Shown here one piece after another: positions 15,346 to 34,804 of a DNA stretch of 64,000 bases. The stretch's first letter is position 1. Every line of letters starts with the position of its first letter. The notes below the pieces were generated by a model. That model saw nothing but the letters and a program-made list of their open reading frames with translations. It was not told where the DNA came from and did no database searches. This DNA is from an uncultured Bacteroidaceae bacterium (GTDB lineage Bacteria > CAIWAD01). The DNA is taken from positions 15,458-79,457 of the forward strand of contig CAZMSD010000015.1 of assembly GCA_964568855.1 (NCBI GenBank), written 5' to 3'. Made by a program: the position numbers and the translations under genes.

Positions 15346-17262
15346 TCAATCCTTGAATACCCTGAAGTTACCGTTTCGCTCCGTGCTTCCCCGCCCGTCC
15401 AGGTATTCAAGAAAAGGTACGGAAAATCGACGCGCCGCCCCGTCCAGGGCCTTGCCCGCCTCGCTTACGGTGAAGCCATGTTCAGAATTATCGGACAGGC
15501 TCTTCAAGGTATTGAGCGCGCGTTTGAAGACGCCGCGGCTGAGGTGGATTTCGGGCGTGACCTGAACCACGCTGCCTTCGTTGCGGCACAAGGCCAGGAG
15601 GCGCTTGACCTCCGCCGTGCTCAGGTCGCGGCGGCTCGCGAGCTCGGCCGGGCGGGGAGCGCTGTAGGCGGCCTTCTCGAGCTCCGTCACCAGGCGGCGC
15701 ATCTGTTCGCGCAGTTCCTCGGGTACGCGCACTTCGTGCTCCCGAAGCGAGACGACTCCACCGTCGCGGGTCAGCGCGCCTGAGCCTTCCAGGGTTCCCA
15801 GCAGGTGCTCGAAGAAGGCCTGATCCCCGGAGGGCTGTCCCGTTCGCGGAAAGAGTTCGCTCCGCAACTGGGCGGAGGGCATCCCCGGCAGCTCGGGCCG
15901 CGATTCGTGATACTCCCTCAACTTATCGAGCAGCTTCGCCGAGATCCGCTCATGGATCTTCGTCGAGATGTAGACGGTGCGGCTGCCCAGCTCCAAGGCT
16001 GCCGCCGATCCCTCGTCCGCCAGCTTGCGGAGGGGTTGTCGCAGCTCCTCGAAGGTGGCGCCCGTCTTCTCCTGCAGCGCCTCCGCCGTCCACAGCGGGT
16101 CCTGCAGGCTGTGGAGGATTCCGTGCATTTGCCGGGCGAGGTCCTCGTCCGCGATGCGCTGCAGGCGCTCCACCACCTGCCCGGATCCCTGGCGGTGCTT
16201 GCGCGGCGTCGGATCGACCACTTCGCCGCCGCCGATGGTGACCTGGGGCGAATAGCGGCGTATCACGAACCGGTCGCCGGCCAGGGCGGTCACGAGGCTT
16301 TCCAGCCGCAGCTGCGCGTAGCAGGATTCGCCTCCCGCGAGTTCTTCACGGCCCAGCAGCACGGCCCTGGCCATCAGTTCGGAAGTTCCGACGTGTACCC
16401 GCAGGCGATCACGGTTGCGCAGGCGGAACGCCCCGGGCAGGATCTCCAGCCGGGCGTCGAGCATGTAACTCGGCTTCAGCACCCCGGGGCTCGCCAAGCA
16501 GTCGCCGCGCCGGACCTGGCCCAGCCCCACGCCCTGCAGGTTGACCGCCGCCCTGTCCCCCTGTTGCACCAGCTCTACCGCGTGCCCGTGGATCTGCAGG
16601 TTCCTGATCCGGGTGCGAGTGCCTCCGGGCAGGATTTCCACCTCGTCGCCGGCGGCGGCGGATCCGGAGATCACCGTGCCGGTCACCACGGTTCCATAGC
16701 CCTTGATGTTGAAAGCGCGGTCGACGAATTCGCGGAAGATACCGCGCCTGTCCGGCGGCGGCAGTTCCTCCAGCCGCGCGCGCAGGATTTCTCCAAGCTC
16801 GGGAATCCCCCTGCCGCTCAGCGAATCCACGCAGACAATCGGGCTGGATTCGAGAAAACTACCCGTGACGAAACTGCTCAACTCTTCGCGCACAAGCTCG
16901 AGCCATTCCTCCTCCACCGTGTCGACCTTGGTTATCACGGCCATGCCGTGTCGCACGCCCAGGAGGCGCAGGATGTCGAAGTGCTCGCGCGTCTGGGGCA
17001 TGATCCCGTCGTCGGCGGCCACCACCAGCAGGACGAAGTCCACGGTGGCCGCGCCGGTGACCATGTTCTTGATGAAGCGCTCGTGCCCGGGGACGTCGAT
17101 GACGGTGATGTTCTCGCCAAGGAAGGCGAATCCGAGGTCGATGGTAATCTGGCGCTGCTGTTCTTCCTTGAGCGTGTCGGTGTCCACGCCTGTGAGAGCC
17201 TTTACCAGGGCCGTCTTGCCGTGGTCGATGTGGCCGGCGGTTCCGATTACGATGTGAGACAT
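15346..17262 (-). CDS. selB: selenocysteine-specific translation elongation factor SelB
   Basis: N-terminus [25 protein letters not shown] with G1 to G4 GTPase motifs. 638 aa, with the C-terminal winged-helix extension typical of SelB. Confidence 0.9.
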
Positions 17263-17273
17263 TCCGTCCCCGT

Positions 17274-18053
17274 TCAGAGCTTGCGTTCCTTGCGGATCGC
17301 GGACCAGGCGTGCTGCAGGTTCTTGAACTTCTCTTCAGCGAAGGAGCGGTACTCGTCTCCAAGATGCGCGACGCGGTCGGGGTGGAATTTCTTGGCCAGT
17401 TCGCGGTAGGCCCTCTTCAGTTCCTCGTCGGCTGCCGAGGGATTCATGCCCAGAACCTCGTAGTGACTGCTCGCGGCGGCGGGCCCGCCGGCAGGCCGGC
17501 TGCTGCCGAAGACGGCCCGCAGGTCCTCTTCGCTGATCCCCAGCCTGCGGGCGATTTCCTGGACCGCGCGCGTCTCCTCCGGGTGCAGCTCGCCGTCGGC
17601 CATGGCGATGGTGAACAGGAAATGAAGGATTTCAAGCCGGTCGTGATACCCCATGTGGGCCGTGATCTGAGCGCAGATCTCGGAGACGTCGAACTCGCGC
17701 TCCAGGATCTGCCTGAGCATCTTGAGCATGTCCTGAGCGTTGTCCTGGCCAAATTGCGCCACCAGGAATTCTCGGACCTTGCGGACCTCGGAGGAAAGCA
17801 CGCGCCGGTCGGCGCGTATCACGTGCGCGCACAGCGCCAGCAGGGCCACCGCGAAGTTGCCGCCCAGATTCCGCTGGAAGCTTTCCTGGTGGCTGTTTAC
17901 GTATTCCGCGTTGCGGTAGTAGTTGTAGGGAATCTCCCGCGCTCGGCCGCGCTGGTCGAAGATGTTGCCGATCATTCCGCCGAAGAGCGCTCCCAGCGGG
18001 CCGAACATCGCCCACCCCAGACCGCCGCCGATCAGTTTGCCTGCCCAGGCCAT
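17274..18053 (-). CDS. djlA: co-chaperone DjlA (TerB domain plus C-terminal J domain)
   Basis: N-terminal Gly-rich transmembrane segment, a TerB-like central region, and a C-terminal J domain (YEVLGMNPSAADEELKRAYRELAKKFHPDR). Confidence 0.8.
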   Translation of the reverse strand: MAWAGKLIGGGLGWAMFGPLGALFGGMIGNIFDQRGRAREIPYNYYRNAEYVNSHQESFQRNLGGNFAVALLALCAHVIRADRRVLSSEVRKVREFLVAQFGQDNAQDMLKMLRQILEREFDVSEICAQITAHMGYHDRLEILHFLFTIAMADGELHPEETRAVQEIARRLGISEEDLRAVFGSSRPAGGPAAASSHYEVLGMNPSAADEELKRAYRELAKKFHPDRVAHLGDEYRSFAEEKFKNLQHAWSAIRKERKL

Positions 18054-18062
18054 TCCAGCTCC

Positions 18063-19577
18063 TTATCGTTTTGCAGCGTCGCCCAGGACCGCCGTCAGCG
18101 CGGCGGCCAGATCGGGCAGCTCGGATTCGTCCACCGTCTTCAGGTCCACCAGCAGAGCCTCGTCCCTGACCCTGCAAACCACCGCGGGTCGGCCCAGGCG
18201 CAACCGGCGGTGCAGCTGCTCGGCGGATCCGCCCGCGGCGCCGATGCGCAGCGCGGCGCTGGGCAGGTCCTGCTCCGGCAGCGCCCCTGATCCCGTCCGG
18301 GCTACGCTGTCGACCAGCCGGAGATTCTCCTCTTCCAGGCGATCCTCCAGCAACTCCGCCAGGCGGCGGGCGCGCTTTCTGACCGCCTCGCGCGGTTCCG
18401 TCAACATCCGGAACGCGGGCAGCTCGGCGGGCCGATCGCCCGCCTCGAGGTAGACCTGGAGCACCGCCTCGAGGGCGGCCAGGGACATCTTGTCGCAGCG
18501 CAACGCGCGCATCATGGGATTGCGGGCCAGTCGACGGACGAGTTCCCGCCGGCCGAGTACGATGCCGGCCTGCGGGCCGCCAAGCAGCTTGTCGCCGCTG
18601 AAACTGACCAGGTCGGCCCCCGCCTCGAGCGAGGCCGCGACCAGCGGCTCGGGTCGCTCGACGCCCGGGAAGTCAACCAGGGCGCCGCTGCCCAGGTCGT
18701 CCAGCAGCAGGACGCCGCGCTCGCGGGACAGCTCCGCCAACTCGGCCAACGGCACCTCGCTGGTGAAGCCGACGATCTTGAAGTTCGAGCTGTGCACCCT
18801 CAGCAGCGCCGCCGTCCCGGGCGTCAGGGCTTCCGCGTAGTCCCGCAGGTGGGTCCGGTTTGTAGTTCCCACCTCGACCAGTCGGCACCCGCTGCGGCGG
18901 ACCACGTCGGGGATCCTGAAGCCGCCGCCGATCTCCACCTGCTGCCCGCGTGATACAACGACACCGCGCCGGTTGCAGAGCGTGTTGAGCATCAGGTAGA
19001 CGGCCGCGGCGTTGTTGTTGCAGACCAGCGCGTCCTCCGCGCCGGTGAGGACCTTCAGCAGACCGCGGACCCGCTCTTCCCGTCGCCCGCGCCGTCCGGA
19101 ATCCAGCTCGTATTCCAGGTCGCAATAGCCGGCCAGGACCTCGTTCAACCTCGTGCGGACCCGCTCCGGCAGCGCGGCCCGACCGAGTCCCGTGTGCAGC
19201 ACGACGCCGGAGGCATTGATCACGCGCCTCATCCGCCCCGCCGACAGCGCCTCGACCCGCGAGCAGACCAGGGCCGCCAGCGCCTCGACGGCGGCCGGCC
19301 TGCGCACGCGCCCCGCCAGGATCCTCTCCCGCCGGCCCTCGATCACGTCGCGAACGATCCGTACGAGGTAGGACCGCGCGATGCGCTGCTCGAGCCCGCG
19401 CAGCCGCGGATGCCCCAGCAGTCGATCGACTCCGGGCAGGGAACGCAGCAGTTCCTCCCGGCCCGCGGACTCGTCCCGGTTGACGGACCCGACACTTGTA
19501 TCACTGTTGCACATGCTGCGATTGGTTCTGTCTGTTGAACGGCGGCGATGTAAGTTCTGGGCCCGTTTCCCGAGCAC
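18063..19577 (-). CDS. selA: L-seryl-tRNA(Sec) selenium transferase SelA
   Basis: PLP-enzyme motifs NNNAAAVYL and FSGDKLLGGPQAG. About 500 aa. Confidence 0.9.
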   Translation of the reverse strand: MLGKRAQNLHRRRSTDRTNRSMCNSDTSVGSVNRDESAGREELLRSLPGVDRLLGHPRLRGLEQRIARSYLVRIVRDVIEGRRERILAGRVRRPAAVEALAALVCSRVEALSAGRMRRVINASGVVLHTGLGRAALPERVRTRLNEVLAGYCDLEYELDSGRRGRREERVRGLLKVLTGAEDALVCNNNAAAVYLMLNTLCNRRGVVVSRGQQVEIGGGFRIPDVVRRSGCRLVEVGTTNRTHLRDYAEALTPGTAALLRVHSSNFKIVGFTSEVPLAELAELSRERGVLLLDDLGSGALVDFPGVERPEPLVAASLEAGADLVSFSGDKLLGGPQAGIVLGRRELVRRLARNPMMRALRCDKMSLAALEAVLQVYLEAGDRPAELPAFRMLTEPREAVRKRARRLAELLEDRLEEENLRLVDSVARTGSGALPEQDLPSAALRIGAAGGSAEQLHRRLRLGRPAVVCRVRDEALLVDLKTVDESELPDLAAALTAVLGDAAKR

Positions 19578-19601
19578 GCGCGCTCAGACGAGCGCGCGCA
19601 C

Positions 19602-21167
19602 TCAGAACTGCGTTCTGAGCGCGGCCTTTACGCCGTTGAAGGGCGGCACGTTGCGGCAGTTGCCGCTGCTGCACACCAGTCCGCCGCGCTGGCGTCCGGC
19701 GAACAGCGTGATGCTGTTCCTCAGATAATCTCCCAGGCGGAAATCCCAGCGCAGTTCCGTGGAGAACATCCAGTCGCGACCCGCGCCGCTGTGCTCTTCG
19801 TAATCGGCGGTCAGGTTGAGCGAGAAGTCCCGGACCGGAAACACGTCCGTCCAGACCAGGGCCGCCAGCCCCGTGCGGACCGGATTGCGGTCCCGCTTGA
19901 ACATCACTTCGCTGCTCCATTCCATGGAACGCAGCAGGGGAACCGGTGTCGACAGGGAGGCGCCCAGGCCGCCGCGCCGCGTCCACTCCCCCGGGTCGGG
20001 CTTGGCTTCCTCGGCGTAGGCCGCGGCGAGGACCAGGTGGCGGTCGTGCTCCCCCGCGTAGTCCCAGCCGGCCGTGTATTCCTGGTAGGCCGCGTAGCGC
20101 TGCTCCATCAGGGGCAGGTATGCGCCGTCGTCGATGTGCGAAGCCCAGGCGGCGCTGAAGCTCAACTCCGGGCCGTCCTCGAAATACCGTGATACATCCA
20201 GCTGCAGCCCAACCTCGTCCTCGAAGGTGTTCTGCCTGCGCTTGCGGGCGATCAGGCGCGTGGGAATCTCCCGCTGTACGATCGGCGGATTGTTGAAGCG
20301 CGGATCACCGCCGGCAAAGCGGTAATACTTGTGCTCGAGCTGCAGGAACCAGCCGAAGAGCGGTCCGCCGAGTGTGGAGTAGGTGGCCAGCCCGCCGGCG
20401 CCGGCGTTCCGGTCGAGTTGGTCGCGCTGGTGCTGGTCAAGGTGGTTGACCGAGAACTCCACCGGTCCGGCGGCTCCCGCTACGTAGATCTCGCGATTGT
20501 CGAGTTCCAGGCGGTCCGGGGTGTCCGACTGCACCACCGCGTCCGCGCTGACCCATGACGCGCCCATCGTGACGGGCGCGGTATATACTTCGGCGTTGGC
20601 CGCCTGCAGGTTCCCGTAGTAGTCCGAGCTGCCCGCCAGAGCTTTCAGGCCCCAGGACTCGCGCAGCACTTCGACGAAAAGGCCGTCGCAGGAATTGTCC
20701 CAGGTGGTGGGCGTCTCCACCCGCGCGGGATCCAGCAGCAGCGGATTGTCGAGGGTCTCGTCGCGGTAGAGCGAGAGCGCCAGGCCGTTGCCGAAGGTGG
20801 TCCAGGCGTTGCCCAGTCGAAGCGTCACGGGCCCCCGCCATTCCAGGTAGCGCCGGATCACGGCGTCACGGCTGACTCTCAGGGCCTCGTCCGTGCGGTC
20901 GGCTGGAAACTCGGCCGGGTGATACACGGCGGCGGCGACGTTCAGCACGATGTCGTTCCAGGCCGCGTCCACGTCGAGCACGTTCTCGCGGTACACCACG
21001 TGCGCGTCGTCCCCGAACTGGGTGCGCACGCTGCCCGTTCCCAGGTTGGCCGTGTTCACGCCCGACAGGCTGATGCCTGTCGCGTCTTCCTCGGCCGGCG
21101 CCAGGGCGGCGATCAGCAGGAGCGCCGTGAGACACACGAGCCAGGACCTTGATTCGGCCGGGCTCAC
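19602..21167 (-). CDS. outer-membrane beta-barrel protein
   Basis: Signal peptide MSPAESRSWLVCLTALLLIAALAPA. Alternating amphipathic strands. Ends in a C-terminal Phe (ALRTQF) with a CSSGNC motif. Confidence 0.6.
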   Translation of the reverse strand: MSPAESRSWLVCLTALLLIAALAPAEEDATGISLSGVNTANLGTGSVRTQFGDDAHVVYRENVLDVDAAWNDIVLNVAAAVYHPAEFPADRTDEALRVSRDAVIRRYLEWRGPVTLRLGNAWTTFGNGLALSLYRDETLDNPLLLDPARVETPTTWDNSCDGLFVEVLRESWGLKALAGSSDYYGNLQAANAEVYTAPVTMGASWVSADAVVQSDTPDRLELDNREIYVAGAAGPVEFSVNHLDQHQRDQLDRNAGAGGLATYSTLGGPLFGWFLQLEHKYYRFAGGDPRFNNPPIVQREIPTRLIARKRRQNTFEDEVGLQLDVSRYFEDGPELSFSAAWASHIDDGAYLPLMEQRYAAYQEYTAGWDYAGEHDRHLVLAAAYAEEAKPDPGEWTRRGGLGASLSTPVPLLRSMEWSSEVMFKRDRNPVRTGLAALVWTDVFPVRDFSLNLTADYEEHSGAGRDWMFSTELRWDFRLGDYLRNSITLFAGRQRGGLVCSSGNCRNVPPFNGVKAALRTQF

Positions 21168-21757
21168 CCTTCCTGCTCCGGCGATTCATGCTCGGGCCCG
21201 GGCGGCTCCTCCTCCACGGGCGGGTCCGCCGCTTCTTCCGGCGGCGCGTCCTGCGGGCCGGGCGCGGCGGCCAGCATGCCGGCGAGTTTCTGCTCGAGCT
21301 CCTTTTCGTCCCCGGGACGGTATCCGCTGTGCGCGTACAGCACTTCACCGTTCCGGCCAACCACCATGGTGTAGGGGGGATTGGAGCCCTTGAGCTGTTT
21401 CATGATCCTGCCGTTGGTATCCAGCAGCACCGGGCAGTCCCAGCCCTTGCCCCTCGCATAGGGTTTGACACGCTTCTGGCTGCGCGGGCTGTCCACGGAC
21501 ACCAGGACGAGCTGCAGGTCCCGTTCGCTGAGGCGTTCGACGATCTTGAACAGGTGCGGGATCTCCTTCTTGCAGGGTTCGCAGTAGGTGGCCCAGAAGC
21601 TGATCAGCACCGGGCCCTTGGCGCAGAGATCCGCCAGCTCCACCATTTTGCCGTCGAGCGCACGGAGCTTGAAGTCGGCCTTCTCGGCGACCGCGCCTCC
21701 GGCCAGGATCAGACTCAGCGTGATACAGAACAGGACTCGTGTCACTCGATCGGCCAT
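21164..21757 (-). CDS. thioredoxin-like thiol-disulfide oxidoreductase (TlpA/ResA family)
   Basis: The WATYCEPCKKEIP CxxC motif lies in a thioredoxin-fold context. N-terminal signal or membrane anchor. Confidence 0.8.
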   Translation of the reverse strand: MADRVTRVLFCITLSLILAGGAVAEKADFKLRALDGKMVELADLCAKGPVLISFWATYCEPCKKEIPHLFKIVERLSERDLQLVLVSVDSPRSQKRVKPYARGKGWDCPVLLDTNGRIMKQLKGSNPPYTMVVGRNGEVLYAHSGYRPGDEKELEQKLAGMLAAAPGPQDAPPEEAADPPVEEEPPGPEHESPEQEG

Positions 21758-21773
21758 AGATTACATTTCCGCC

Positions 21774-22889
21774 TTATCTCAGCAGCAGCATTTTTCCGGA
21801 ACGCTCGTACCAGGGGGTTTCCACTGTGTAGTAATAGGCGCCCGAGGGCAGGCCCGAAGCATCGAAGAGCTGCTCGTGCCGGCCGGCGGCGCGCGGCGCC
21901 GTTTCCGCCGGCAGGGCCACGGTCCTGCCGCCCAGGTCCAGGACCCTGATGGTCACGGGTCCGGGAGCGGGCATTAGGTAGGGTATGTGCGTCACGGGAT
22001 TGAAAGGATTGGGCCAGTTGTCCCGCAGCTCGAAATCCGCGGCAAGCGACGGTATGGCGCTCTCCGTGGTGGCGACGACGGCCAGTTCCTGGCTCAGCGT
22101 GTCCTCGGGACAGAACTCGCGGACGAAGGCCACTTCCAGCAGGGCGCTGCCGTGGCTGCGGGTGATGACTTCCACGTCGTAGTCGCACTCGGTCTCACTG
22201 ACCAGCAGGTCCTCGCCGGAGACCATGTCGCCGAAGAAAATCGGCAGGCAGAAGATGTCGCCGCGGCAGATCTGGTAGGTCCAGTCCTCGGGCCCCTCGA
22301 GCAGCCGCAGGATCAGGGTGATGGTCTCGTCCTGGAAGCCGGGGTTGGAGGCGTGATACCAGAAGTAGGCGCTGATTCCCTCGGGCGGGAACTCGTCGGC
22401 CTCGACGCTCACCTCGGTGCTGTCGCTGAGCGTGAATTCGCTGCACTGGGCCCGGGCGACGACGGCCAGTTCCTGGCTCAGCGTGTCCTCGGGACAGAAC
22501 TCGCGGACGAAGGCCACTTCCAGCAGGGCGCTGCCGTGGCTGCGGGTGATGACTTCCACGTCGTAGTCGCACTCGGTCTCACTGACCAGCAGGTCCTCGC
22601 CGGAGACCATGTCGCCGAAGAAAATCGGCAGGCAGAAGATGTCGCCGCGGCAGATCTGGTAGGTCCAGTCCTCGGGCCCCTCGAGCAGCCGCAGGATCAG
22701 GGTGATGGTCTCGTCCTGGAAGCCGGGGTTGGAGGCGTGATACCAGAAGTAGGCGCTGATTCCCTCGGGCGGGAACTCGTCGGCCTCGACGCTCACCTCG
22801 GTGCTGTCGCTGAGCGTGAATTCGCTGCACTGGGCCCGGGCGCCGGCGACCCAGGCCAGGGCGAGGATGAGCAGGATCCTGATCTTCAT
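21774..22889 (-). CDS. Cys-rich secreted protein with T9SS type-A C-terminal domain; contains a perfect tandem duplication of a 128-aa module
   Basis: Signal peptide MKIRILLILALAWVAGARA. Two identical 128-aa repeats (AQCSEFTLSDSTEVSVEADEF...ELAVVA). C-terminal PNPFNP...YYYTVE...KMLLLR Por sorting domain. Confidence 0.8.
   Translation of the reverse strand: MKIRILLILALAWVAGARAQCSEFTLSDSTEVSVEADEFPPEGISAYFWYHASNPGFQDETITLILRLLEGPEDWTYQICRGDIFCLPIFFGDMVSGEDLLVSETECDYDVEVITRSHGSALLEVAFVREFCPEDTLSQELAVVARAQCSEFTLSDSTEVSVEADEFPPEGISAYFWYHASNPGFQDETITLILRLLEGPEDWTYQICRGDIFCLPIFFGDMVSGEDLLVSETECDYDVEVITRSHGSALLEVAFVREFCPEDTLSQELAVVATTESAIPSLAADFELRDNWPNPFNPVTHIPYLMPAPGPVTIRVLDLGGRTVALPAETAPRAAGRHEQLFDASGLPSGAYYYTVETPWYERSGKMLLLR
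22073..22840. repeat. perfect 384-bp direct tandem duplication (2 copies) inside the T9SS cargo gene
   Basis: Nucleotides 22073-22456 are identical to 22457-22840 as read. The period is an in-frame multiple of 3. Confidence 0.85.
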
Positions 22890-22954
22890 CGTTCCTCCAG
22901 TACTGTTGGATGCCCCGCAGGTTCCGCTCCCGCCGGCACCGCGACGTCGCGAGC

Positions 22955-24217
22955 CTATTCGGCCAGCAGTTCCTCGACGATCGAAACCAGCGTCTCCTGC
23001 TCGAGCTGCCCGTGCACGGAGTGGATCACGCCGCGCCGGTCGAGGATGAAGTTCGTCGGGAAGACGCTCACGCCCGCAAGTTGCGCGACGGGGGGATCCA
23101 CCGAGTCCTCCAGGAAGCGGAAATCGTACCCGGGATTTTGCGCGATCCATTCATCCAGCACGCTCGGATCGCCGGTAATGTCCGCCTGCAGCGGGTCCAG
23201 GGCCAGGATACGGAAGCCTTCTCCGTGATACTCATCGAGCACCTCCTGCAGCATGGGAATCTCCTCCAGGCAGGGAGCGCAGGTGGTGAACCAGAAATTC
23301 ACCAGGACCACCCGGCCCCGGAACTGGCGCAGCGACAATTCCTGCGCGCCCGCCTCAGGCAGGGTGAAATCCTCGAAGAGACCGCCGGCCTGGTAACTCA
23401 GCTCCCCCGGTTCCCAGGCGAAGGACAGATCCGTGTCACAGATGCTGTCGAATAGAAACGCCGCCTCGCTCGAGACGACATGGGCCGGCAGGTAGGCGGA
23501 TACGAAGTGGGCGCCCATCAGGTTGATCAGGGCGGCGGCGTCGAGCAGGCCGGTGGCCTCCTCGTCGAGGATCAGCTCGGCCTCCGCGTCGCCGAGATCG
23601 ATGCTAAGCTGCGCGTCGTCGACCTCGATCAGCATGGCCGCCTGCTGAGGATCCTCGGCGAAGGAGAAAGTCGTGTCGCCGCGAACGCACTCCGCGTTGC
23701 CCACCGCGAGTTCATTTTCGACCAGGGGCGTAAACTGAACAAGGGCCGGAGTGAGGGTGGGCAGCGCCTCGCCGTTGAGCAGCAAGGGCAGGCCATCCAG
23801 CGTATCGCCGCCGGCCAGCATGGAAATCACGGTCATGGTGAACAGGGAATCCAGCCGCGGCAGGACCTCGATGGTCAGCGAGTCGACGTCCTGCTCATAG
23901 AAGAGGAAAGGCTGCTCGCCCGGTTCGAAATAGTTGTCAGTGTCGAAGGGCAGGAAACGCAGCACGTAGCTGCTGTCCAGGGGCAGCTCGTCGATCAGGT
24001 TCCACTGAGCGCCGTCCGGAGGGTAGAACCCTGCCGGCTCCCCGTTGAGATAGATCTGTCCATCCACGGGGCTCGAATCGTAGGCATCGATGGCGCGGAC
24101 ATAGAGCGCGCCGAGTTGTTCGACTTCGACCAGCTTGTCGATGCTGCAACCGGCGACCAGCATCAGGACCGAGAGGATCGACAGCGCGCTTTTGCATGTG
24201 AAACGAGGCATGGTCAA
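22955..24217 (-). CDS. lipoprotein with a C-terminal TlpA-like thioredoxin domain
   Basis: Lipobox LMLVAGCS. C-terminal FWFTTCAPCLEEIP CxxC thioredoxin fold. 420 aa. Confidence 0.75.
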   Translation of the reverse strand: MTMPRFTCKSALSILSVLMLVAGCSIDKLVEVEQLGALYVRAIDAYDSSPVDGQIYLNGEPAGFYPPDGAQWNLIDELPLDSSYVLRFLPFDTDNYFEPGEQPFLFYEQDVDSLTIEVLPRLDSLFTMTVISMLAGGDTLDGLPLLLNGEALPTLTPALVQFTPLVENELAVGNAECVRGDTTFSFAEDPQQAAMLIEVDDAQLSIDLGDAEAELILDEEATGLLDAAALINLMGAHFVSAYLPAHVVSSEAAFLFDSICDTDLSFAWEPGELSYQAGGLFEDFTLPEAGAQELSLRQFRGRVVLVNFWFTTCAPCLEEIPMLQEVLDEYHGEGFRILALDPLQADITGDPSVLDEWIAQNPGYDFRFLEDSVDPPVAQLAGVSVFPTNFILDRRGVIHSVHGQLEQETLVSIVEELLAE

Positions 24218-25399: not shown

Positions 25400-25858
25400 T
25401 CAGGCTGATTCCCTGATGCTTGGCGGGATGCTGCTGGTGAAACCCAGTTCGTCGGCCACTTTCGTCAGCTGTTCCATCAACAGACCCTGTTCCGTCTCTG
25501 AACTGTCCTCCACCAGCCGGCGGATGCGATCGATTTCGTCGGCCATCATTTCCTGCAGGAAGCTATCGCCCTCGGAAGTGAGCTTGAGCAGGCTGTAACG
25601 CCGGTCTGATCCTTCATGGCGGCTGAGGAAGCCCCGCTGAACCAGGTGCTGCACCAGCGGGCTGATGCGACCCTTCTGCAGGCCGGTGCAATCTGTCAGG
25701 GTGCTCACACAAGTGAAAGGTGAATAGCTGGTCAGGATCAGGATTTTAAGCGCGGTGGCCGGCAGGTGTTCCTGCTTTGCCAGTCCGGTAATCCTGGAGG
25801 AAACCCCACAGGTCAGCTTGAGGACCTGTTCCAGTACTTTCCATTCACGGCTGCTCAT
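25400..25858 (-). CDS. MarR-family transcriptional regulator
   Basis: 152 aa with winged-helix core ...SPFTCVSTLTDCTGLQKGRISPLVQHLVQRGFLSRHEGSDRRYSLLKLTSEG. AT-rich promoter region upstream. Confidence 0.8.
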   Translation of the reverse strand: MSSREWKVLEQVLKLTCGVSSRITGLAKQEHLPATALKILILTSYSPFTCVSTLTDCTGLQKGRISPLVQHLVQRGFLSRHEGSDRRYSLLKLTSEGDSFLQEMMADEIDRIRRLVEDSSETEQGLLMEQLTKVADELGFTSSIPPSIRESA

Positions 25859-25977: not shown

Positions 25978-26050
25978 CCCCGCTCGCCGGATCGAGTATA
26001 AAGCCCCCACTCGCATGCACGAGCGGGCCCGCTCGCCGGATCGAGTATTA
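25978..26050. repeat. 23-nt direct repeat (x2) separated by 27 nt; a 16-nt perfect palindrome spans the junction
   Basis: cccgctcgccggatcgagtat(a/t)a occurs at 25978-26000 and 26028-26050. cgagcgggcccgctcg (26020-26035) is self-complementary and can pair with either repeat copy. Confidence 0.7.
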
Positions 26051-26182
26051 GGTGAAGTCCACGCCCGTGTCGTCGAGCTGCACATCTCCGGCGGTGAAAT
26101 CGTCGATCAGGATGTCGGCTGGTGCGGGACCAGCCAGGCCGGCCGCTAAGGCCATCAAGAGAAGGATTTTCAAACGAGCCAT
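26048..26182 (-). CDS. small secreted acidic peptide (44 aa), hypothetical
   Basis: Translates MARLKILLLMALAAGLAGPAPADILIDDFTAGDVQLDDTGVDFT*. AAAAGAGG Shine-Dalgarno lies 7 nt upstream. Below the ORF-track length cutoff. Confidence 0.4.
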   Translation of the reverse strand: MARLKILLLMALAAGLAGPAPADILIDDFTAGDVQLDDTGVDFT

Positions 26183-26242: not shown

Positions 26243-26280
26243 TGTCGGAATGAAAACCGCAAGGGTTGTGCCAGATTTGG
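26243..26280 (+). promoter_or_regulatory. degenerate copy of the TGTCGGAA...GCC(A/C)GAT(A/T)TTGG box
   Basis: tgtcggaatgaaaaccgcaagggttgtgccagatttgg. Related to the boxes at 30026 and 32195. Confidence 0.35.
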
Positions 26281-26463
26281 CCAGCTTTCCTCGTCTCCTC
26301 AGCCCTGAAAAACCAGGATGTTAGTGCAAATTATTGCACTACGCTACTCTGCCCATTGGCTGAATACGCCCGATTCTGGGCAATACTGCCAGTTCTTGCA
26401 CAGGTCTGGCTCGACAGCTCGATTCGACGCGTCAACCACCCCTTGCTCCCTCGGAAAGAGAAC

Positions 26464-26493
26464 GAGTCCCCCGATCGGTTGACCGGGGGACTC
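26464..26493 (-). terminator. Rho-independent terminator after T9SS cargo paralog C
   Basis: A gagtccccc...gggggactc hairpin; on the minus strand it is followed by a T-rich tract. Confidence 0.55.
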
Positions 26494-26524
26494 GGCGTGT
26501 TCGTCCGGATCCTGATCGTTGAAC

Positions 26525-28171
26525 CTACTTCACCAGCACCATTTTCCTCGTATCGGTCAAGCCGCCGGTCTCAAGCGTGTAGAAATAGACTCCGGCGGAC
26601 AACATGGATGCCTCGAATACTACGCTGTGAGCGCCGTGCTCCATCATGCCGTTCACCAGGACGGCCACTTCCGCACCGGTCACATTATAGACGCGCAGGC
26701 TGACCATGCCCGTCTCCGGCACGTGATACGCGATGGTGGTCGTCGGATTGAAGGGATTCGGATAATTCTGTACCAGCTCGAAGGCGGCGGTCTGCTCATC
26801 CGCGAAAACCGCGTCGCAGCAATCGCCCACCAGGCTGACCGCGTATGATCCGTAATCGCAGGCGTAACCGTTCACGCGCAGGTAGTAGCTGCCGGCGTCC
26901 AGCGCCACGTCGTCCAGGTAGGAGGTGAAACCCGTGCACCCCTGCGCCCATCCATCGTCGTTGTAGGCGATGTAAGTGCCCTCATCCCAGGCTGCGTCGC
27001 ATGGCGGCAGATCGTAGAGCCAGAGCTTGGTGTCGAAATCCGCCTGGTTGCAGGTGTAGATGTCCAGCACGCAGGGTTCGTCGACGCTGAAGCAGTACCA
27101 GTCCTCGGCGCACTCCTCGAGCAGCTCGCCGGAATAGTCGCCGCAGGCATCGTCCAGTTCCAGGTCGCAGACCCAGTCCTCGCAGGGATCGCCCTGTCCG
27201 CAGTCCCCCGACACGTCGACCCGCCAGGTGGTCTCGTCGGGTACGTGGTCGAAGCCGTCGGGCGCAATGATGAACATGTACTCGCCCGCATCCAACCCCA
27301 CCGTAAGGGAGAGTTCCTCGCTGCCGGCGAGGGTCTCGATCACATCAAGATCGTCGCAGTCGCCGGCGGCGATCCAGATGCGATAGTCGGCGATGCAGGA
27401 GAAGGCGTCGAAAGTAACCGTGCCGTCCGCGTCCAGCGTGAACAGGAACCAGTCCAGGTCCCGGGTGTTCAGGCCGGTGTCATCGTTGAGGAAGGTGAAC
27501 AGGGTGCCGCAGTAGGCCTCGCCGCACTCCATTTCGCCGTAGGTCTCCGGGTCGAAATTGCAGCCGCCGTTGGTCAGGTCCTCGTAGGGCGGGATGTTGC
27601 CGTAGTAGGGTTCATTCTCCGGGACGGCGTCCGTGCAGTCGGGGTCCTCGCAGGGCTCGTCGCCGCCACAGGATTCCGCGGTCACCCGGACGTGGCCGCC
27701 CACGTCGTTGTAGTCGGAGATCCAGATGTAGTACTCCTCGCCGCCGCTGAAGGTGAAATGTTCGCAGCCGAAGGAGGCATACCAGGCCGGCCACTGGCCC
27801 CCGCCGCCGTTACAGGGCTCGGTTCGGTCCCAGCCGGCCAGCCAGGAGAGGTTGGTGCAGGGGCCGAGGTAGATGTCCACGTTGGTATCGCCGTCCACCA
27901 CGCTTTCCTCGTGGCAGGTGGAGAACTCGAGCTGCGAATCCGTTGCGGGCGTGTAGCGCAGCCAGGCCCCCTCGGAGGTGATGTCGTATTCCGCTTCGAA
28001 GGGAAGCGTCAGGTCCACCGCCGACTCGCAGGTGGCGAAGCGCATGGCCGGGGCGCTGTGGGGCTGCCCGTCCTTGGTGACGGGCGGGCCTACCACGGCG
28101 AGGTCGGCGAAACCGGCGCCGGACAGCAGGCCCGTCAGCAGCGCCGCACTAAGAATCTTGATCCTGAACAT
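26525..28171 (-). CDS. Cys-rich secreted protein with T9SS type-A CTD (paralog C)
   Basis: Signal peptide MFRIKILSAALLTGLLSGAGFA. Many Cys and Asp residues. C-terminal QNYPNPFNPTTTIAYHVP...GVYFYTLE...KMVLVK. Confidence 0.8.
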   Translation of the reverse strand: MFRIKILSAALLTGLLSGAGFADLAVVGPPVTKDGQPHSAPAMRFATCESAVDLTLPFEAEYDITSEGAWLRYTPATDSQLEFSTCHEESVVDGDTNVDIYLGPCTNLSWLAGWDRTEPCNGGGGQWPAWYASFGCEHFTFSGGEEYYIWISDYNDVGGHVRVTAESCGGDEPCEDPDCTDAVPENEPYYGNIPPYEDLTNGGCNFDPETYGEMECGEAYCGTLFTFLNDDTGLNTRDLDWFLFTLDADGTVTFDAFSCIADYRIWIAAGDCDDLDVIETLAGSEELSLTVGLDAGEYMFIIAPDGFDHVPDETTWRVDVSGDCGQGDPCEDWVCDLELDDACGDYSGELLEECAEDWYCFSVDEPCVLDIYTCNQADFDTKLWLYDLPPCDAAWDEGTYIAYNDDGWAQGCTGFTSYLDDVALDAGSYYLRVNGYACDYGSYAVSLVGDCCDAVFADEQTAAFELVQNYPNPFNPTTTIAYHVPETGMVSLRVYNVTGAEVAVLVNGMMEHGAHSVVFEASMLSAGVYFYTLETGGLTDTRKMVLVK

Positions 28172-28500
28172 GGGGATCCTCCGTATTTCCATTCTGTGTC
28201 TGGTCGTTTCGTGATCCGATTCTGCCGGTTCCTCGTTGCGCAATTGTAATGCCAGTCACATCCGCGGGGGGCGGTTGTCTGCATGGTCAGCGTTTCCGAA
28301 GCTGAAATACTGGGATTACGAAGTGTGGAATTCAGAAAGGTATGGATTTCGGGCAGGACGCCGAATCAATCAAGCGGTAGTTCGGAAGGGCCAAAGTGGT
28401 TCATTTGGCTATTGACCGTGGAGATAACCCTCCAGCGGGCATGGTCGGCACCCCGATCGGTGAATAACACAACAAAAGGGCCCCGACCGCTTGGATGGGT

Positions 28501-28535
28501 AGAAAAAGCCCCCACCTGCAGGCGCAAGTGGGGGC
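28501..28535 (-). terminator. Rho-independent terminator after paralog B
   Basis: Minus strand reads GCCCCCACTTGCGCCTGCAGGTGGGGGC followed by TTTTTCT. Confidence 0.7.
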
Positions 28536-28590
28536 ATCGCAATCGCAACGTATGACGTTCTGCTTATTCAGCAGATGGGCAAGCCGTGGC

Positions 28591-29787
28591 TTACTTCAGA
28601 AGCACCATCTTCTTCGTGTTGCTGAAGTTCTCGGCTTCCAGCGTATAGAAATAGACGCCGGTGGCCAGGTCCGCAGCGTTGAAGGTGACCGTGTGCTCGC
28701 CCTGCTCGACCATTCCGCTCACCAGGGTGCTCACCAGGTCGCCGCTCAGGTTGTAGACCTGCAGGCTGACCTCGCCCGTCTGGGGCACGGAGAACTCGAT
28801 GGAGGTGGAGGGATTGAAGGGATTCGGGTAGTTCTGGCCCAGCGCGAAGTCCACGGGAACTTCCTCGGCCTCGCTGTAGGGGCAGTCCAGGACGCAGAGC
28901 AGGAAGTCTCCGCAGGCGGTATCGTAACCATCGACCGCGATGTAGGTGCGGCCGGCCGGCAGCCAGCAGCAGATCTCCGACTGCAGTCCGCAGCTGTCGT
29001 CGTTGCCGCCGATCTGCACGCCGTACTCATCGAAGAGCCCAACGCAGGTGTCGTAGGTGGATCCGCAGAGGTCGACCTGTACATGGGTAAGGTCCGCCAG
29101 GTCGACGTAATACCACATGTCCTTGCCCAGGCCGCTGCTGGCATAGAGCGTGTTCTTCCAGCAGAGACCGTACCCATACGGGCCCGTGGTGTCGGTGGCG
29201 TCGCAGGTGTTGCCCGCGATGCAGTCGCCGTTCAAGGTCACCGGCAGGGCTCCCGCCATGGTGTCGTTCTCGGGCGGCTCGGGCGGCGCGCCGCACTCGG
29301 TGAAGGACACTTCGAGAGTCATCGTGTCGGTCAGGTCGTCGCTGTAGTACTCATTGAACAGGATGTAGTGCATTACGCCGTCGGCGAAGATGAACTCATC
29401 GCAGTACAAGTAGGTCGCCCACGAAGCGTACTGGCAGTTGGAATCGCCGTCCCGGTAATAAACCTGGGTCAGGTTCTGGCAATCGCCCGTGTAGATCCAG
29501 AGCTGGGAGTCGAAGTTCGTGCCGGGCAGGCAGGTCTCGATTTCCAGTCCGTTGCCGTCTCCCATGTACGAGAACCACACCTGACCGGGACCAACCTCGT
29601 TGTAGGTGGTGCCCACGACCACCGGAATGGCCGTGTCGCAGTCGTTGGCCCGGGGCGTGTAGTCGCCCTGCGAAGCGGCGTAGATCTTGCGATCCAGTTC
29701 CGAGTCGGCGAAAGCCGTGGCGCAGGTTCCAGCCATCACGGCCATCGCAAGAATGTACCTCACATTCATCATCGTCTCTCCTTTCAC
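28591..29787 (-). CDS. Cys-rich secreted protein with T9SS type-A CTD (paralog B)
   Basis: Signal peptide MMNVRYILAMAVMAGTCATAFA. C-terminal GQNYPNPFNPSTSIEFSVP...GVYFYTLE...KMVLLK. Confidence 0.8.
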   Translation of the reverse strand: MKGETMMNVRYILAMAVMAGTCATAFADSELDRKIYAASQGDYTPRANDCDTAIPVVVGTTYNEVGPGQVWFSYMGDGNGLEIETCLPGTNFDSQLWIYTGDCQNLTQVYYRDGDSNCQYASWATYLYCDEFIFADGVMHYILFNEYYSDDLTDTMTLEVSFTECGAPPEPPENDTMAGALPVTLNGDCIAGNTCDATDTTGPYGYGLCWKNTLYASSGLGKDMWYYVDLADLTHVQVDLCGSTYDTCVGLFDEYGVQIGGNDDSCGLQSEICCWLPAGRTYIAVDGYDTACGDFLLCVLDCPYSEAEEVPVDFALGQNYPNPFNPSTSIEFSVPQTGEVSLQVYNLSGDLVSTLVSGMVEQGEHTVTFNAADLATGVYFYTLEAENFSNTKKMVLLK

Positions 29788-30025
29788 AGTCCTGAGTTAG
29801 GGGTATATCTGGATGTCTTTTCGTCAGACCATGGGAAACGCGCTGATGGTGCTGCGCATCAGCGAAGTTGACTGTTGTTCAAAGCTGTTTCCAGGCTTCA
29901 GGACAAGCTGCTAACCGCAAAATGCGCGCCATTCTCGGTTGAAAGCAGCATAACATTGAAATTGTTGTTTTTAATCGAATTCCAGCCTATCGCAGGAGTA
30001 CTGAATGTCCCTTCAGTTTGTAAGC

Positions 30026-30059
30026 TGTCGGAACTTGAACATGATTCGCCCGATATTGG
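30026..30059 (+). promoter_or_regulatory. conserved box TGTCGGAACTTGAACA-N6-GCCCGATATTGG, 239 nt upstream of paralog B
   Basis: A 16-nt core identical to the box at 32195, with the same downstream GCCCGATA element. Confidence 0.5.
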
Positions 30060-30230
30060 ACTCAATAACTCCACCGACGCGAAGCTGGGATCGATCGCGG
30101 CGCCGCATGCTGCAAGCAGCTGGAAGCTGATCGACCGGTCGATGCCACCTGCGCCCAAGTCGCCGGATGTCGTTACATGAAAATGCTCCTGGTTCACGTT
30201 CACACGACCGGCGCCCGACCGCTGGCATTT

Positions 30231-30271
30231 GGTTGAAAAAGAGGCCCCCGACCGCCACAGCGGCCGGGGGC
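30231..30271 (-). terminator. Rho-independent terminator after paralog A
   Basis: Minus strand reads GCCCCCGGCCGCTGTGGCGGTCGGGGGCC followed by TCTTTTTCAA. Confidence 0.7.
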
Positions 30272-30325
30272 AAGGGTGATGCTGTCGGTGCGCAGTACGC
30301 GGACAGCGGTCCTAAACGAAGCAGC

Positions 30326-31996
30326 TTACTTCGCCAGCACCATCTTCTTGGTGCTGCTCAGACCGGCCGTCTCGAGCGTGTAGAAGTACACACCGGAGCT
30401 CAAATTGCTGGCATCGAAGGTGACGCTCTGCTCGCCACGCTCCATCATCCCATTCACCAGGGTGGCCACCACTTCGCCGTTCAGGTTGTAGACCTTCAGG
30501 CTGGTCAGACCGGCCTCGGGCACCGTGAAGTCGATGGTGGTCGCCGGGTTGAAGGGATTCGGGTAGTTCTGGCCCAGCGTGAAGTCGGCCGCCAGCTCGT
30601 TCGCCTCGACGCAGTCGTCCTCGTACCACCAGCAGATGCTCACCTGGTCGCAAATGCTGATCGGCGAGTCTACCCAGAAGGTCTGGTAGTAGTCGGGCGC
30701 ACTGTCGTACTCGAAGAAGAACAGGCCGGTGCTGGAGTTGATGTCCGCGCAGGGTGGGTCACCGCCCGTCCACAGGTAGGTGCTGCCGTCGATGCAGGGG
30801 CCGCCCCAGGCCATGGGATCCACTGCGGGATCGCCGCCCGGCAGGAAGCAGTAGGCCAGGCCGATGCAGCCGTCGGAGGGCAGGAAGAACGAGAACCAGT
30901 ACTCGCCGGCGTCCATCGGGGTGGCGGGCACGCAGGGATAGGTTCCATGCCATCCGCTCACATCGGTGAAGTTGCACCAGTCGCAGAGGTTCAGGTTCAT
31001 CGAACCGGCATTGTCGTAACCCATGTAGTTCATGTAGTCCAGGTCGGTGGTCAGGACGTCCGGATTCGTGCAGTCGTTGTCCTCGTCACAGCAGATCTCG
31101 CAGTCCATGGCGATGATGTACGGACCGGGGGCCGACCAGTCGGTGCGAACCTCGACCATGTAGTAGCCTGGCTGCAGGCAGCACTCGAGGTGCGAGTCGT
31201 AGCCTTCGCCGCCGTCGTCGTCATAGCAACCCACGGGTACGCAGTTCATGTCGTAGATCTCGATCGCCGGATCCAGGCCGAAGCCGAAAGGCGGCATGCC
31301 AAAGGTGTCATCGCCGTAGACGTCGAAGATCACGTTGGTCTCTTCGTCAAGGGAGAACCAGAACCAGTCGCTGTCGCCGGAATCCAGGATCTCGCCGCAC
31401 TTGGCCTGATCGCAGTTGATGTCGTTCAGGTAGTCGCCGCAGTAGTCGCCCGGGGTCGGGTAGTCGTCCACGTGCCAGATCAAGCCATCGGGGCAGACGA
31501 ACTCTTCGGGAGCTTCGCAGCAGGTGAACTCGATCGTGAAATCGCCGGCGTTGCCGTAGTAGTCGGCGATCATGATGAAGTAGTCTTCACCCAGATCGAA
31601 GAGCATGTCGCTGCATTCCATGTAGGTCTGCCAGCCGTTGCCCCAGGCACAGTTGCCGTCGCCGTCGCGGTAGAACAAGAGGGTTCCGCCGCACTCGTCG
31701 TAGATGTAGAGATCCGTGTCAAGATCCGGAGTCGCCTCGAAACAGGTGGCGATCTCAAGACCAACACCTTCTCCCACGTACTCGAACCACTGCACGCCAC
31801 CCGCCGTCAGGGTGTAGACGGCCGGGCCGTAGTCGCAGTCGATAACGATAGCTTCTTCACAGGTGTTGTCACGATCGACGGGCACTTCAGGCCTGTCCCG
31901 CTTCTCGACGGTCACGCTCTGCATCTCCATCGTGGCAAAGCTTGTGCCGGCAAGCAGCCCAAGCAAGGCCATGCTACAGATGATTCGCTTCTTCAT
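30326..31996 (-). CDS. Cys-rich secreted protein with T9SS type-A CTD (paralog A)
   Basis: Signal peptide MKKRIICSMALLGLLAGTSFA. N-terminal region (CEEAIVIDCDYG...WFEYVGEG.GLEIATC) shared with paralogs B and C. C-terminal GQNYPNPFNPATTIDFTVP...GVYFYTLE...KMVLAK. Confidence 0.8.
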   Translation of the reverse strand: MKKRIICSMALLGLLAGTSFATMEMQSVTVEKRDRPEVPVDRDNTCEEAIVIDCDYGPAVYTLTAGGVQWFEYVGEGVGLEIATCFEATPDLDTDLYIYDECGGTLLFYRDGDGNCAWGNGWQTYMECSDMLFDLGEDYFIMIADYYGNAGDFTIEFTCCEAPEEFVCPDGLIWHVDDYPTPGDYCGDYLNDINCDQAKCGEILDSGDSDWFWFSLDEETNVIFDVYGDDTFGMPPFGFGLDPAIEIYDMNCVPVGCYDDDGGEGYDSHLECCLQPGYYMVEVRTDWSAPGPYIIAMDCEICCDEDNDCTNPDVLTTDLDYMNYMGYDNAGSMNLNLCDWCNFTDVSGWHGTYPCVPATPMDAGEYWFSFFLPSDGCIGLAYCFLPGGDPAVDPMAWGGPCIDGSTYLWTGGDPPCADINSSTGLFFFEYDSAPDYYQTFWVDSPISICDQVSICWWYEDDCVEANELAADFTLGQNYPNPFNPATTIDFTVPEAGLTSLKVYNLNGEVVATLVNGMMERGEQSVTFDASNLSSGVYFYTLETAGLSSTKKMVLAK

Positions 31997-32194
31997 AAGG
32001 GTCCTCCCACAAAGCTTTAGGGGTTGTGAAATGAGTTTATGTGGTTGTTTAGTGACGAATCGGCTTTAGGACGAGTCTTTTGGAGCAAGAGGCGTGCCAG
32101 AGTATTCAGACAATTATCCAAGATCAAAGAGCTTTGAAAATCAGGCACTTGAACTATCGCTGAATCCCACTCAGGTCTCAATCCCGGTACGAGA

Positions 32195-32227
32195 TGTCGG
32201 AACTTGAACAGCTCTTGCCCGATACTG
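32195..32227 (+). promoter_or_regulatory. conserved box TGTCGGAACTTGAACA-N6-GCCCGATACTG, 199 nt upstream of paralog A
   Basis: See the box at 30026. The flanking sequence is otherwise unrelated. Confidence 0.5.
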
Positions 32228-33788: not shown

Positions 33789-34804
33789 CCCGTGTACAGA
33801 ATACGCTTGGAGCCGCTGCGTATCACAACGGAGCTATGTTTGAGTGCGACCATGAAGGCATGCCGCCATGTTGCGAGGATTGACTGTCCAATATCGAGCA
33901 CCTGCGGCGGGAATTGGACACTCTCAAGGCAGCCGGCCCGTCATGGGAAATTGCAAGCTGTTGAATAATTTGAACTAAGCGAACTCCCATCCGTTGGCAC
34001 ATCTCTTGCACAACGACCACCGGATCGGGTTCTTCAGAAAAGAATGATCCTGGGTGCTGAATGGACAAGATTTTTGAAGTTCACAACTTCACAATGGATG
34101 ACCTGCCCGCTGTTAGGCAGATGGCGCGCCGGGTTATCTTCCATTCAAACCTCCTAATCTCCTCACCCGTATTTCTGATTTTGCTATTGGTTCTGTGTCT
34201 TTTCGGCATGTAACCAGGATCAAAGCCGCTATCTTTTTCTGAAGAGCCCTTTCCATCTTTCAATCAGAAGCAATCTCAAAATAGAGTTGCATGTCCCGTC
34301 AAGGGACTGGTTCATCGAATGGAGGTTCGTCTCTCTCACAAGCATTTGTTGTCCGTCGACCCTGTTCAGCCTGTTCGATTATGGGCATGCGTAGCGGCTA
34401 CTGCCCATCTCCCACAAGCGTCTGAGTTATAAGGGGTTATAAACTGGATTCTGGAGTTAGATCGACGGCTGAGCCTTTTGAGGTGCTCGATTTAGGACAA
34501 CGCGGCAAAATCAGAATACAGTCCCTGTGAAGGAGCTGTAGACGCTAGTGCTTGTTTTCCTTATACCTGCAAGAAACCCGTTCGTGGAAGAAGCTATGGC
34601 ATAATGCTTGCTGTGCTTCTCGCCCGAATGGGTTTCTTGTTGAGAAGTGATTGGTAGGCAGGCACCCCCATTTCAGCGGGCTTTGTACCCCCCTTCACAA
34701 AGTCTGTTCTGAACCCCTTCTCGACACCACCGTTTGATTTTGCTAATTCACCGCCTGCCCGCCGATCGCGCCGCTATCAACCAGGAACCCATTTTTTCTC
34801 TCTC

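Follow-up and report, generated by a model that had tools for sequence, protein, structure and literature searches.

A three-gene array of Cys-rich T9SS cargo with predicted sigma-54-type promoters in an uncultured Bacteroidaceae bacterium

Introduction

How are paralogous type IX secretion system (T9SS) cargo genes expressed when they stand side by side, each behind an unusually long spacer, and what do they encode? This question is raised by an array of three minus-strand genes in an uncultured Bacteroidaceae bacterium. The array lies within a 64,000-nucleotide stretch of contig CAZMSD010000015.1 (positions 15,458 to 79,457), the whole of which was analyzed and is referred to as the window. 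The initial annotation, made from the sequence alone, regarded the array as a family expansion under independent, probably regulated control. It also suggested that the upstream regions might encode long 5′ untranslated regions (5′ UTRs) or regulatory RNAs, and that the adjacent MarR might bind the spacers. Our analysis makes it fairly probable that the three genes are independent sigma-54-dependent cassettes, each with its own terminator, which encode T9SS cargo composed of PPC modules.

Gene structure of the array

The three open reading frames (ORFs) were called at 26525-28243, 28591-29787 and 30326-31996 on the minus strand. Gene 1 likely starts at ATG 28171, which is preceded by a GGAGGA ribosome-binding site and gives a 548-residue (aa) form identical to the database protein P0002, and gene 2 likely starts at ATG 29772 (393 aa). 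Both corrected starts have a ribosome-binding site of the GGAGGA or AAGGAG type. Among the protein lengths given at first (572, 398 and 556 aa), only the last is kept, whereas the other two are shortened to 548 and 393 aa. The genes and the parts of their products, including the shared N-terminal module (N-module) and the C-terminal sorting domain (CTD), are as follows.

26525..28171, minus: gene 1, 548-aa T9SS cargo; signal peptide, divergent N-module (aa 46-179), weak PPC-like region, canonical repeat module (aa ~353-454), CTD
28591..29772, minus: gene 2, 393-aa T9SS cargo; signal peptide, N-module (aa 43-172), one canonical repeat module (aa ~181-307), CTD
30326..31996, minus: gene 3, 556-aa T9SS cargo; signal peptide, N-module (aa 45-163), second PPC-like sandwich (~190-301), low-confidence third β region (~310-460), CTD (aa 478-553)

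Sigma-54-type promoter elements ahead of the cargo genes

A search for the sigma-54 motif TGGCAC-N5-TTGC yielded three perfect sites in the 64-kb window against 0.14 expected, a number that was never reached in shuffled sequences. All three are intergenic and fall in the 26-34 kb interval. When one mismatch was tolerated, a correctly oriented sigma-54-type site was found ahead of each of the three cargo genes.

32085..32099, minus: predicted -24/-12 promoter of gene 3, TGGCACGCCTCTTGC, perfect match; 88 nt before the ATG
29917..29931, minus: predicted -24/-12 promoter of gene 2, TGGCGCGCATTTTGC, one mismatch; 144 nt before the ATG
28240..28254, minus: predicted -24/-12 promoter of gene 1, TGGCATTACAATTGC, one mismatch; 68 nt before the ATG

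Cargo genes at the equivalent slot in relatives possess the same element, as 9/9 have a correctly oriented -24/-12 motif located 59-163 nt before the ATG. These nine genes come from 7 divergent loci of metagenomes and metagenome-assembled genomes (MAGs), namely L001, L086, L087, L090 and L092 with one gene each, and L093 and L088 with two; L091 was left out as a duplicate of L090. Their products share 37-49% identity with gene 3, and the DNA upstream of the genes is unalignable with the window. Within the element, conservation is confined to the GG and GC dinucleotides, the bases next to them and the spacing, whereas the 5-nt spacer is variable. The gene 3 promoter element was also found in six orthologous loci, and the gene 2 ortholog in L088 has the promoter TGGCAAGCCATTTGC. 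In addition, L001 contains five sigma-54-type matches against 0.69 expected. We take this comparative conservation as the decisive evidence for predicted sigma-54-type promoters, and infer that the array makes use of sigma-54.

With the corrected starts, the spacers upstream of genes 1, 2 and 3 measure 419, 553 and 598 nt and have a GC content of 0.549, 0.546 and 0.478, respectively; the three coding sequences reach 0.606-0.637 and the window as a whole 0.648. The long lower-GC region described ahead of each gene (340-600 nt in the initial annotation) is therefore confirmed, at 419-598 nt. The spacers are long and AT-richer because each is predicted to combine the terminator of the previous gene with an activator site and with the promoter and the 5′ UTR, ~85 nt of looping DNA lying between activator site and promoter. 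The predicted 5′ UTRs span ~50-135 nt, and most of each spacer would thus lie upstream of the predicted start sites.

The low-GC spacer ahead of gene 2 also contains a 101-aa ORF on the plus strand (29875-30180), called as a gene in L002-L004, which overlaps both elements predicted for gene 2, the activator site and the promoter. It is probably spurious.

On its downstream side the slot is bordered by a further gene.

25400..25858, minus: MarR-like winged-helix gene; downstream border of the slot, with its own sigma-70-type promoter

The product of this gene scores 21.7 bits against MarR_2 (cut-off 27), 15.2 bits against MarR (cut-off 24.6) and far below the cut-offs of NCBIfam. It is winged-helix-like, and "MarR-like" at most; its adjacency to the array is real, whereas these scores do not support the name MarR.

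Alternatively, the cargo genes might be transcribed from distant sigma-70-type promoters, with long 5′ UTRs or regulatory RNAs in the spacers and the MarR-like protein acting on them as a repressor. The MarR-like gene indeed adjoins the slot in seven relatives with an identity of 68-88%, far above that of the cargo proteins, and sigma-70-like hexamer pairs are found upstream of gene 3 (32312-32283, 32181-32153 and 32140-32113). However, these hexamers sit in AT-rich DNA, with a total of 7 in the region against 3.0 expected, and Rfam scans of the region gave no family match but noise only. The 5′ UTR of gene 2, which is the longest and was considered as a conserved riboregulator, does not align with that of its L088 ortholog beyond the promoter. 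Moreover, the MarR-like gene is preceded by a conserved sigma-70-type promoter of its own, TTGCNA-N17-(G/C)ATCAT, with a conserved AACAAAATCAATTNTTTAACAGTA box ahead that was not seen in the cargo spacers. No operator-like motif common to the MarR-like gene region and the spacers was found. The only good palindrome beside the gene (26324-26339), considered as a MarR operator in the form TAGTGCAA-N4-TTGCACTA (26322-26341), does not extend beyond this species and is missing from the spacers. In addition, the cargo gene pair of L088 exists without a MarR-like neighbor, and what all relatives have kept is the -24/-12 motif. Altogether, transcription from distant sigma-70-type promoters is unlikely. 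The long 5′ UTRs and regulatory RNAs proposed at first for the spacers found no support, and for a possible role of the MarR-like gene in cargo control only synteny speaks.

Putative upstream activator sites of genes 2 and 3

Comparison across loci revealed a second conserved motif, further upstream, that a search for exact or near-exact 10-mers common to the promoter upstream regions of the window had missed, giving nothing convincing. In five gene 3 orthologs it reads TGTYCAANNTCCGNCAG(C/G)TTGAACG, which contains the inverted repeat GTTCAA-N11-TTGAAC; in these orthologs its start lies 99-101 nt from the -24 element, on the upstream side. The corresponding sites of genes 2 and 3 have the consensus TGTYCAANNTCCGNCA.

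32186..32210, minus: putative gene 3 upstream activator site, TGTTCAAGTTCCGACATCTCGTACC; its start lies 111 nt upstream of the -24 element
30017..30041, minus: putative gene 2 upstream activator site, TGTTCAAGTTCCGACAGCTTACAAA; its start lies 110 nt upstream of the -24 element

At 110-111 nt, the spacing exceeds that of the relatives by one helical turn. When a weight matrix built from four sites of other loci only was scanned over both strands of the whole window, the two best matches were 30017-30041 and 32186-32210, both on the gene strand upstream of genes 2 and 3. The window has just three occurrences of a relaxed 16-nt core of the site; two belong to genes 2 and 3, and the third is at position 33885 ahead of another sigma-54-type promoter. 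These features point to an enhancer-binding activator that would recognize the sites.

The TGGCAC-N5-TTGC and TGTYCAA motifs could also be the sites of an unrelated regulator, with sigma-54 uninvolved, which would agree with the absence of an rpoN or activator gene from the sequence examined. However, the GG and GC dinucleotides are conserved together with their exact spacing, whereas the 5-nt spacer between them is free to vary. With the distance to the start codon counted as fixed and an inverted repeat ~100 nt upstream, the features together correspond to the textbook anatomy of a sigma-54 promoter, which makes an unrelated regulator quite unlikely.

Intrinsic terminators downstream of each gene

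Each cargo gene is followed by a strong hairpin, as the initial annotation had stated, with slightly changed bounds.

26463..26494, minus: gene 1 intrinsic terminator, 14-bp stem, -29.3 kcal/mol
28508..28535, minus: gene 2 intrinsic terminator, 12-bp stem, -26.2 kcal/mol
30244..30271, minus: gene 3 intrinsic terminator, 12-bp stem, -28.3 kcal/mol

These hairpins are the three top-listed terminator-like matches in a scan of 11 kb, with z-scores of -4.3 to -5.5 against shuffled sequences, and their tails (UUCUCUUU for gene 1, UUUUUCU and CUCUUUUUC) are those of intrinsic terminators. A single operon read from the gene 3 promoter, in which the hairpins serve as partial attenuators or RNA stabilizers, would suit three genes on the same strand and the poorer T tract of the gene 1 hairpin, but it is highly improbable in view of the 12-14 bp GC-rich stems with T-rich tails, the own conserved promoter of each gene and the relatives that have the genes singly or in other combinations.

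Domain composition and fold of the cargo proteins

The three proteins align across the signal peptide, the N-module of ~125 aa and the CTD, which bears out the common layout first described for them. By eye, the first 21-22 aa of all three proteins read as a signal peptide that combines a basic start with a hydrophobic core and an AFA, SFA or GFA cleavage motif. The CTDs of the three proteins score 33.1, 43.4 and 48.9 bits against PF18962 (Por_Secre_tail; curated cut-off 27), and 41, 43.9 and 50.2 bits against TIGR04183 (cut-off 23), and are thus all of the type-A class of T9SS. Further proteins with weak CTD matches are also encoded in the window, and no core T9SS genes were recognized among the window-encoded proteins. 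The mature parts without the CTD contain 5.8-6.6% Cys and 16-21% Asp+Glu, with Lys and Arg nearly absent; the CTDs contain no Cys.

The N-modules share a pairwise identity of 31-39%. A hidden Markov model (HMM) built from the three copies matches just these three among the six-frame ORFs of the window, with E values of 1e-59 to 1e-62. The Cys- and Asp-rich motif initially quoted for the N-module reflects a real shared module, from which gene 1 deviates with WLRY and LEFSTC. The module is unnamed in the Pfam and NCBIfam copies searched, and the Pfam PPC family (PF04151) gives no match to it; the best PF04151 match is the middle region of gene 3, with 16.6 bits against a gathering score of 25.9. 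Searched as a profile against PDB sequences, the N-module has its best match in the collagenase PPC domain 5sv5, with an E value of 0.17 that is not significant. No catalytic family was found in the three cargo proteins by Pfam and NCBIfam.

A word-indexed search with the N-module alignment returned no homologs, whereas an exhaustive HMMER profile scan did find them, and representatives of 1,839 clusters passed E ≤ 1e-3. Most members of this family are long proteins with 3-19 tandem copies of the module, and they often also carry T9SS CTD, PPC, GBD_T9SS_assoc, GEVED or dockerin domains. No enzyme domain was recognized in the 18 members examined, and the names of the sequence clusters are uninformative.

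The structure of the N-module was predicted by AlphaFold from a 36-sequence alignment. The model, with a pLDDT of 91, adopts a jelly-roll β-sandwich. Structural comparison against the PDB using Foldseek placed the collagen-binding domains (CBDs) of ColG and ColH, the PPC domain of Bacillus anthracis collagenase and C-CPE at the top of the list for the N-module, with a probability of 1.0, an E value of 3e-4 and TM scores of 0.5-0.58. For 1nqd, 3jqw, 5sv5 and 5iku, the E values range from 3e-4 to 3e-3 and the TM scores from 0.5 to 0.63, over the N-module and full-length gene 3 models. Asked at first whether the fold is PPC- or PKD-like, we find the modeled N-module to be PPC-like. The full-length model of gene 3 is all-β, but of low confidence (pLDDT 63, from a shallow alignment), and its best specific match is the tandem CBD of ColG. 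Inside this model, a second PPC-like sandwich follows the N-module, and the third β region matches nothing. We conclude from the models that the cargo proteins are probably strings of PPC/CBD-like modules ending in a T9SS tail. By inference, they would be secreted or surface-attached binding proteins that are stabilized by disulfides.

Evolution of the cargo slot

The array resides in a conserved gene order composed of DUF4159, DUF4175, a gap of ~1 kb, an aminotransferase, the cargo slot, the MarR-like gene, a 275-aa lipoprotein, a redoxin, a ~245-aa weak-CTD protein, a thioredoxin, DUF6029, SelA, DjlA and SelB. This order is kept in L092 and L093, and partly in L088, L001, L086 and L087. The slot contains one gene 3-type gene in L001, L086, L087, L090 and L092, two genes in L093 and three in the window. 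In L088, a gene 2 ortholog is found together with a gene 3-like gene.

Orthologs of gene 3 are present in L001, L086, L087, L090, L092 and L093, and those of gene 2 are P0116 and P0145; no ortholog of gene 1 was found among the related loci recovered. Gene 3 shares 44-45% identity with its orthologs over the full length, compared to 33% with gene 2 over the N-module only. Since gene 3 is closer to its own orthologs than to gene 2 or gene 1, the paralogs predate the split from these lineages. As judged from these sequence relationships, the array occupies a slot in which members are gained and lost, and is not a recent local burst. Concerning the family expansion under independent regulated control that had been proposed, paralogy and separate units, with one promoter and one terminator per gene, are borne out in silico, whereas a recent local expansion is not.

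In scans of GTDB genomes, no gene 3 orthologs were found. The aminotransferase, used as an anchor in the same scans, gave 80 loci from many phyla with at most 62% identity, none of which has the module nearby. The closest labeled SelA belongs to a Calditrichaeota MAG, with 56% identity.

Downstream of the slot, the minus-strand block at 15346-24217 encodes the 275-aa lipoprotein, an AhpC/TSA-redoxin lipoprotein with a C-terminal redoxin domain, the ~245-aa weak-CTD protein, the thioredoxin, DUF6029, SelA, a DjlA-like TerB-DnaJ protein and SelB, and the same block is found in L088, L092 and L093. The location of two thioredoxin-fold proteins beside Cys-rich cargo is suggestive, and the selenocysteine machinery lies next to this cargo as well.

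Small units near the array

Between gene 1 and the MarR-like gene lies a small unit with a sigma-54-type promoter of its own.

26259..26273, minus: fourth sigma-54-type promoter, downstream of gene 1, TGGCACAACCCTTGC, perfect match
26048..26182, minus: 44-aa ORF downstream of this promoter; signal peptide (MARLKILLLMALAAGLAGPAPA...) followed by 22 residues

The 44-aa ORF was called by gene callers in L002-L005; it is seen in this species only and has no homolog in other relatives. The unit was considered as a decayed cargo paralog, which we rejected because relatives lack a homolog and its DNA is not significantly similar to the array. It may encode a lineage-specific small secreted peptide, or be a gene remnant. 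Just after the ORF, a unit of ~49 nt (TACTCGATCCGGCGAGCGGG...GGGGGCTTTA) is directly repeated (25985-26055, minus). Compared to L002, the start of the MarR-like gene is shifted by 49 nt to a later position in L003 (around 12130-12310), which suggests copy-number polymorphism of the repeat between strains.

On the other side of the array, downstream of the aminotransferase gene, a conserved unit extends over 33885-34213 on the plus strand. It begins with the inverted repeat TGTCCAA-N22-TTGGACA at 33885, the left half of which matches the activator core of the cargo genes, followed by a perfect sigma-54-type promoter (33995-34009, plus) and a 50-aa ORF (34061-34213, plus). The encoded peptide (MDKIFEVHNF...) has a C-terminal hydrophobic helix and is 78-84% identical in four relatives. 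Most substitutions in the ORF fall on third codon positions, and its 3′ half contains long stretches that are invariant in DNA.

Further downstream, in a unit at 34597-34800, a conserved sigma-54-type promoter (34597-34611, plus) precedes a candidate structured RNA of ~175 nt (within 34620-34800). The candidate has a 14-bp closing helix (GGGUUUCUUGUUGA / UCAACAAGGAACCC), inner helices with 14 compensatory pairs in 6 sequences, the C-rich loops CACCCCC and ACCCCC, and a terminator hairpin in four relatives. It is conserved in L001, L086, L090, L092 and L093, and has neither a consistent reading frame nor an Rfam match.

Apart from these units, a one-mismatch sigma-54-type site, TGGCATCCCGCTTGC, is located in an intergenic region at 60571-60585 on the minus strand, and ~200 nt downstream of it lies a 372-aa ORF (59235-60353) that has a signal peptide.

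A putative model of the array

Based on these findings, we propose that the array encodes three old paralogs, which would be secreted, very acidic, Cys-rich and non-catalytic proteins. Each would comprise a Sec signal peptide, two or three sandwiches resembling PPC or collagen-binding domains, and a type-A T9SS CTD. The proteins would be exported to the periplasm, fold with stabilization by disulfides and reach the cell surface or the medium by way of the type IX system, where they most likely serve as binding or adhesion modules. Each gene would form a self-contained sigma-54-dependent unit with a -24/-12 promoter 59-144 nt ahead of the start codon and a strong terminator. In the case of genes 2 and 3, an enhancer-binding activator would bind ~110 nt upstream of the -24 element and contact the promoter by looping. 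As genes 2 and 3 and the neighboring small-ORF unit share the activator motif, one activator probably co-induces them, whereas gene 1 has the promoter only.

Several observations weigh against this model. The one-mismatch sigma-54-type sites number 9 against 4.06 expected, an approximately 2-fold excess that is weak alone, and two of the three cargo-gene promoters in the window carry one mismatch. Upstream of gene 1 there is no recognizable activator site, the L093 genes have variant activator cores at -145 and -110, and the L088 gene 3-like gene has an activator half-site at -99, so that gene 1 and the off-spacing L088 and L093 genes would fit the activator-site model only loosely. Genes for rpoN and an enhancer-binding protein were not found in the window or the related loci examined, and neither GAFTGA nor RpoN-box motifs occur in the window or 13 related loci; we assume that both rpoN and the activator are present in this genome. 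As to the proteins, confidence in the full-length model of gene 3 is low, and the putative function is read from fold and composition only.

More speculatively, it is possible, if doubtful, that the array belongs to a small sigma-54 regulon, not described before, of an uncultivated FCB-type lineage, under one enhancer-binding protein recognizing TGTYCAANNTC(C/G)(G/A)NC. Such a regulon would combine the cassette-like array of Cys-rich PPC cargo, each gene with its own enhancer, promoter and terminator, with the conserved 50-aa membrane peptide and possibly the ~175-nt structured small RNA with C-rich loops, which would be new, beside the block of periplasmic thiol-disulfide oxidoreductases. If true, it would represent an inducible module of cell-surface remodeling with dedicated disulfide handling.

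If the prediction of the promoters and the activator motif holds, they would provide a regulatory handle on T9SS cargo outside the well-studied Bacteroidota. The slot further suggests that a cargo family may evolve as self-contained enhancer-promoter-gene-terminator cassettes that are gained and lost at a fixed genomic position. Moreover, the Cys-containing PPC-like repeat family, with ~1,800 sequence clusters, could be defined as a domain of its own. These findings extend known principles to new sequences, and do not overturn current views.

Comparison with known systems

The cargo proteins resemble other T9SS cargo with a type-A CTD (PF18962/TIGR04183) in the Sec signal peptide, the sorting domain of ~75 aa with QNYPNPFNP, and the modular β-sandwiches. 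They differ from such cargo in lacking an enzyme or known adhesin domain, in being extremely acidic with ~6% Cys, and in coming from an uncultivated lineage.

Compared to PPC (PF04151) and the collagenase CBDs (ColG s3b and ColH s3; 1nqd, 3jqw, 5sv5), the modules share the same jelly-roll fold and a tandem arrangement as in ColG s3a-s3b, in addition to a similar sequence logic, W[FY]xF ... DTxLxhY ... YYhxV. However, the identity is 10-19%, the N-module has no Pfam PPC match, the cysteines are conserved, and no peptidase is attached.

Concerning regulation, an experimental precedent exists in Flavobacterium psychrophilum, where remFG-sprCDBF and exported proteins without a known function are expressed from sigma-54 promoters (PMC9723704). 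A cross-phylum survey found the sigma-54 regulons of Bacteroidota to be enriched for chaperones and protein turnover (PMC12316311). The predicted promoters of the array are similar to the motif SM4 of F. psychrophilum (PMC9723704), as both are -24/-12 promoters before T9SS-related surface or exported genes in the FCB group, with enhancer-binding activators. They differ in that here each paralog has its own promoter and the activator motif lies at a fixed ~100-110 nt, all of which is predicted. The classical sigma-54 promoters glnAp2, nifH and pspA likewise share with the array the GG/GC core, an inverted-repeat activator site ~100 nt upstream (putative in the array, at genes 2 and 3) and an AT-richer looping region. 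Compared to these promoters, the targets in the array are predicted to be secreted proteins of binding modules, instead of metabolic or stress genes.

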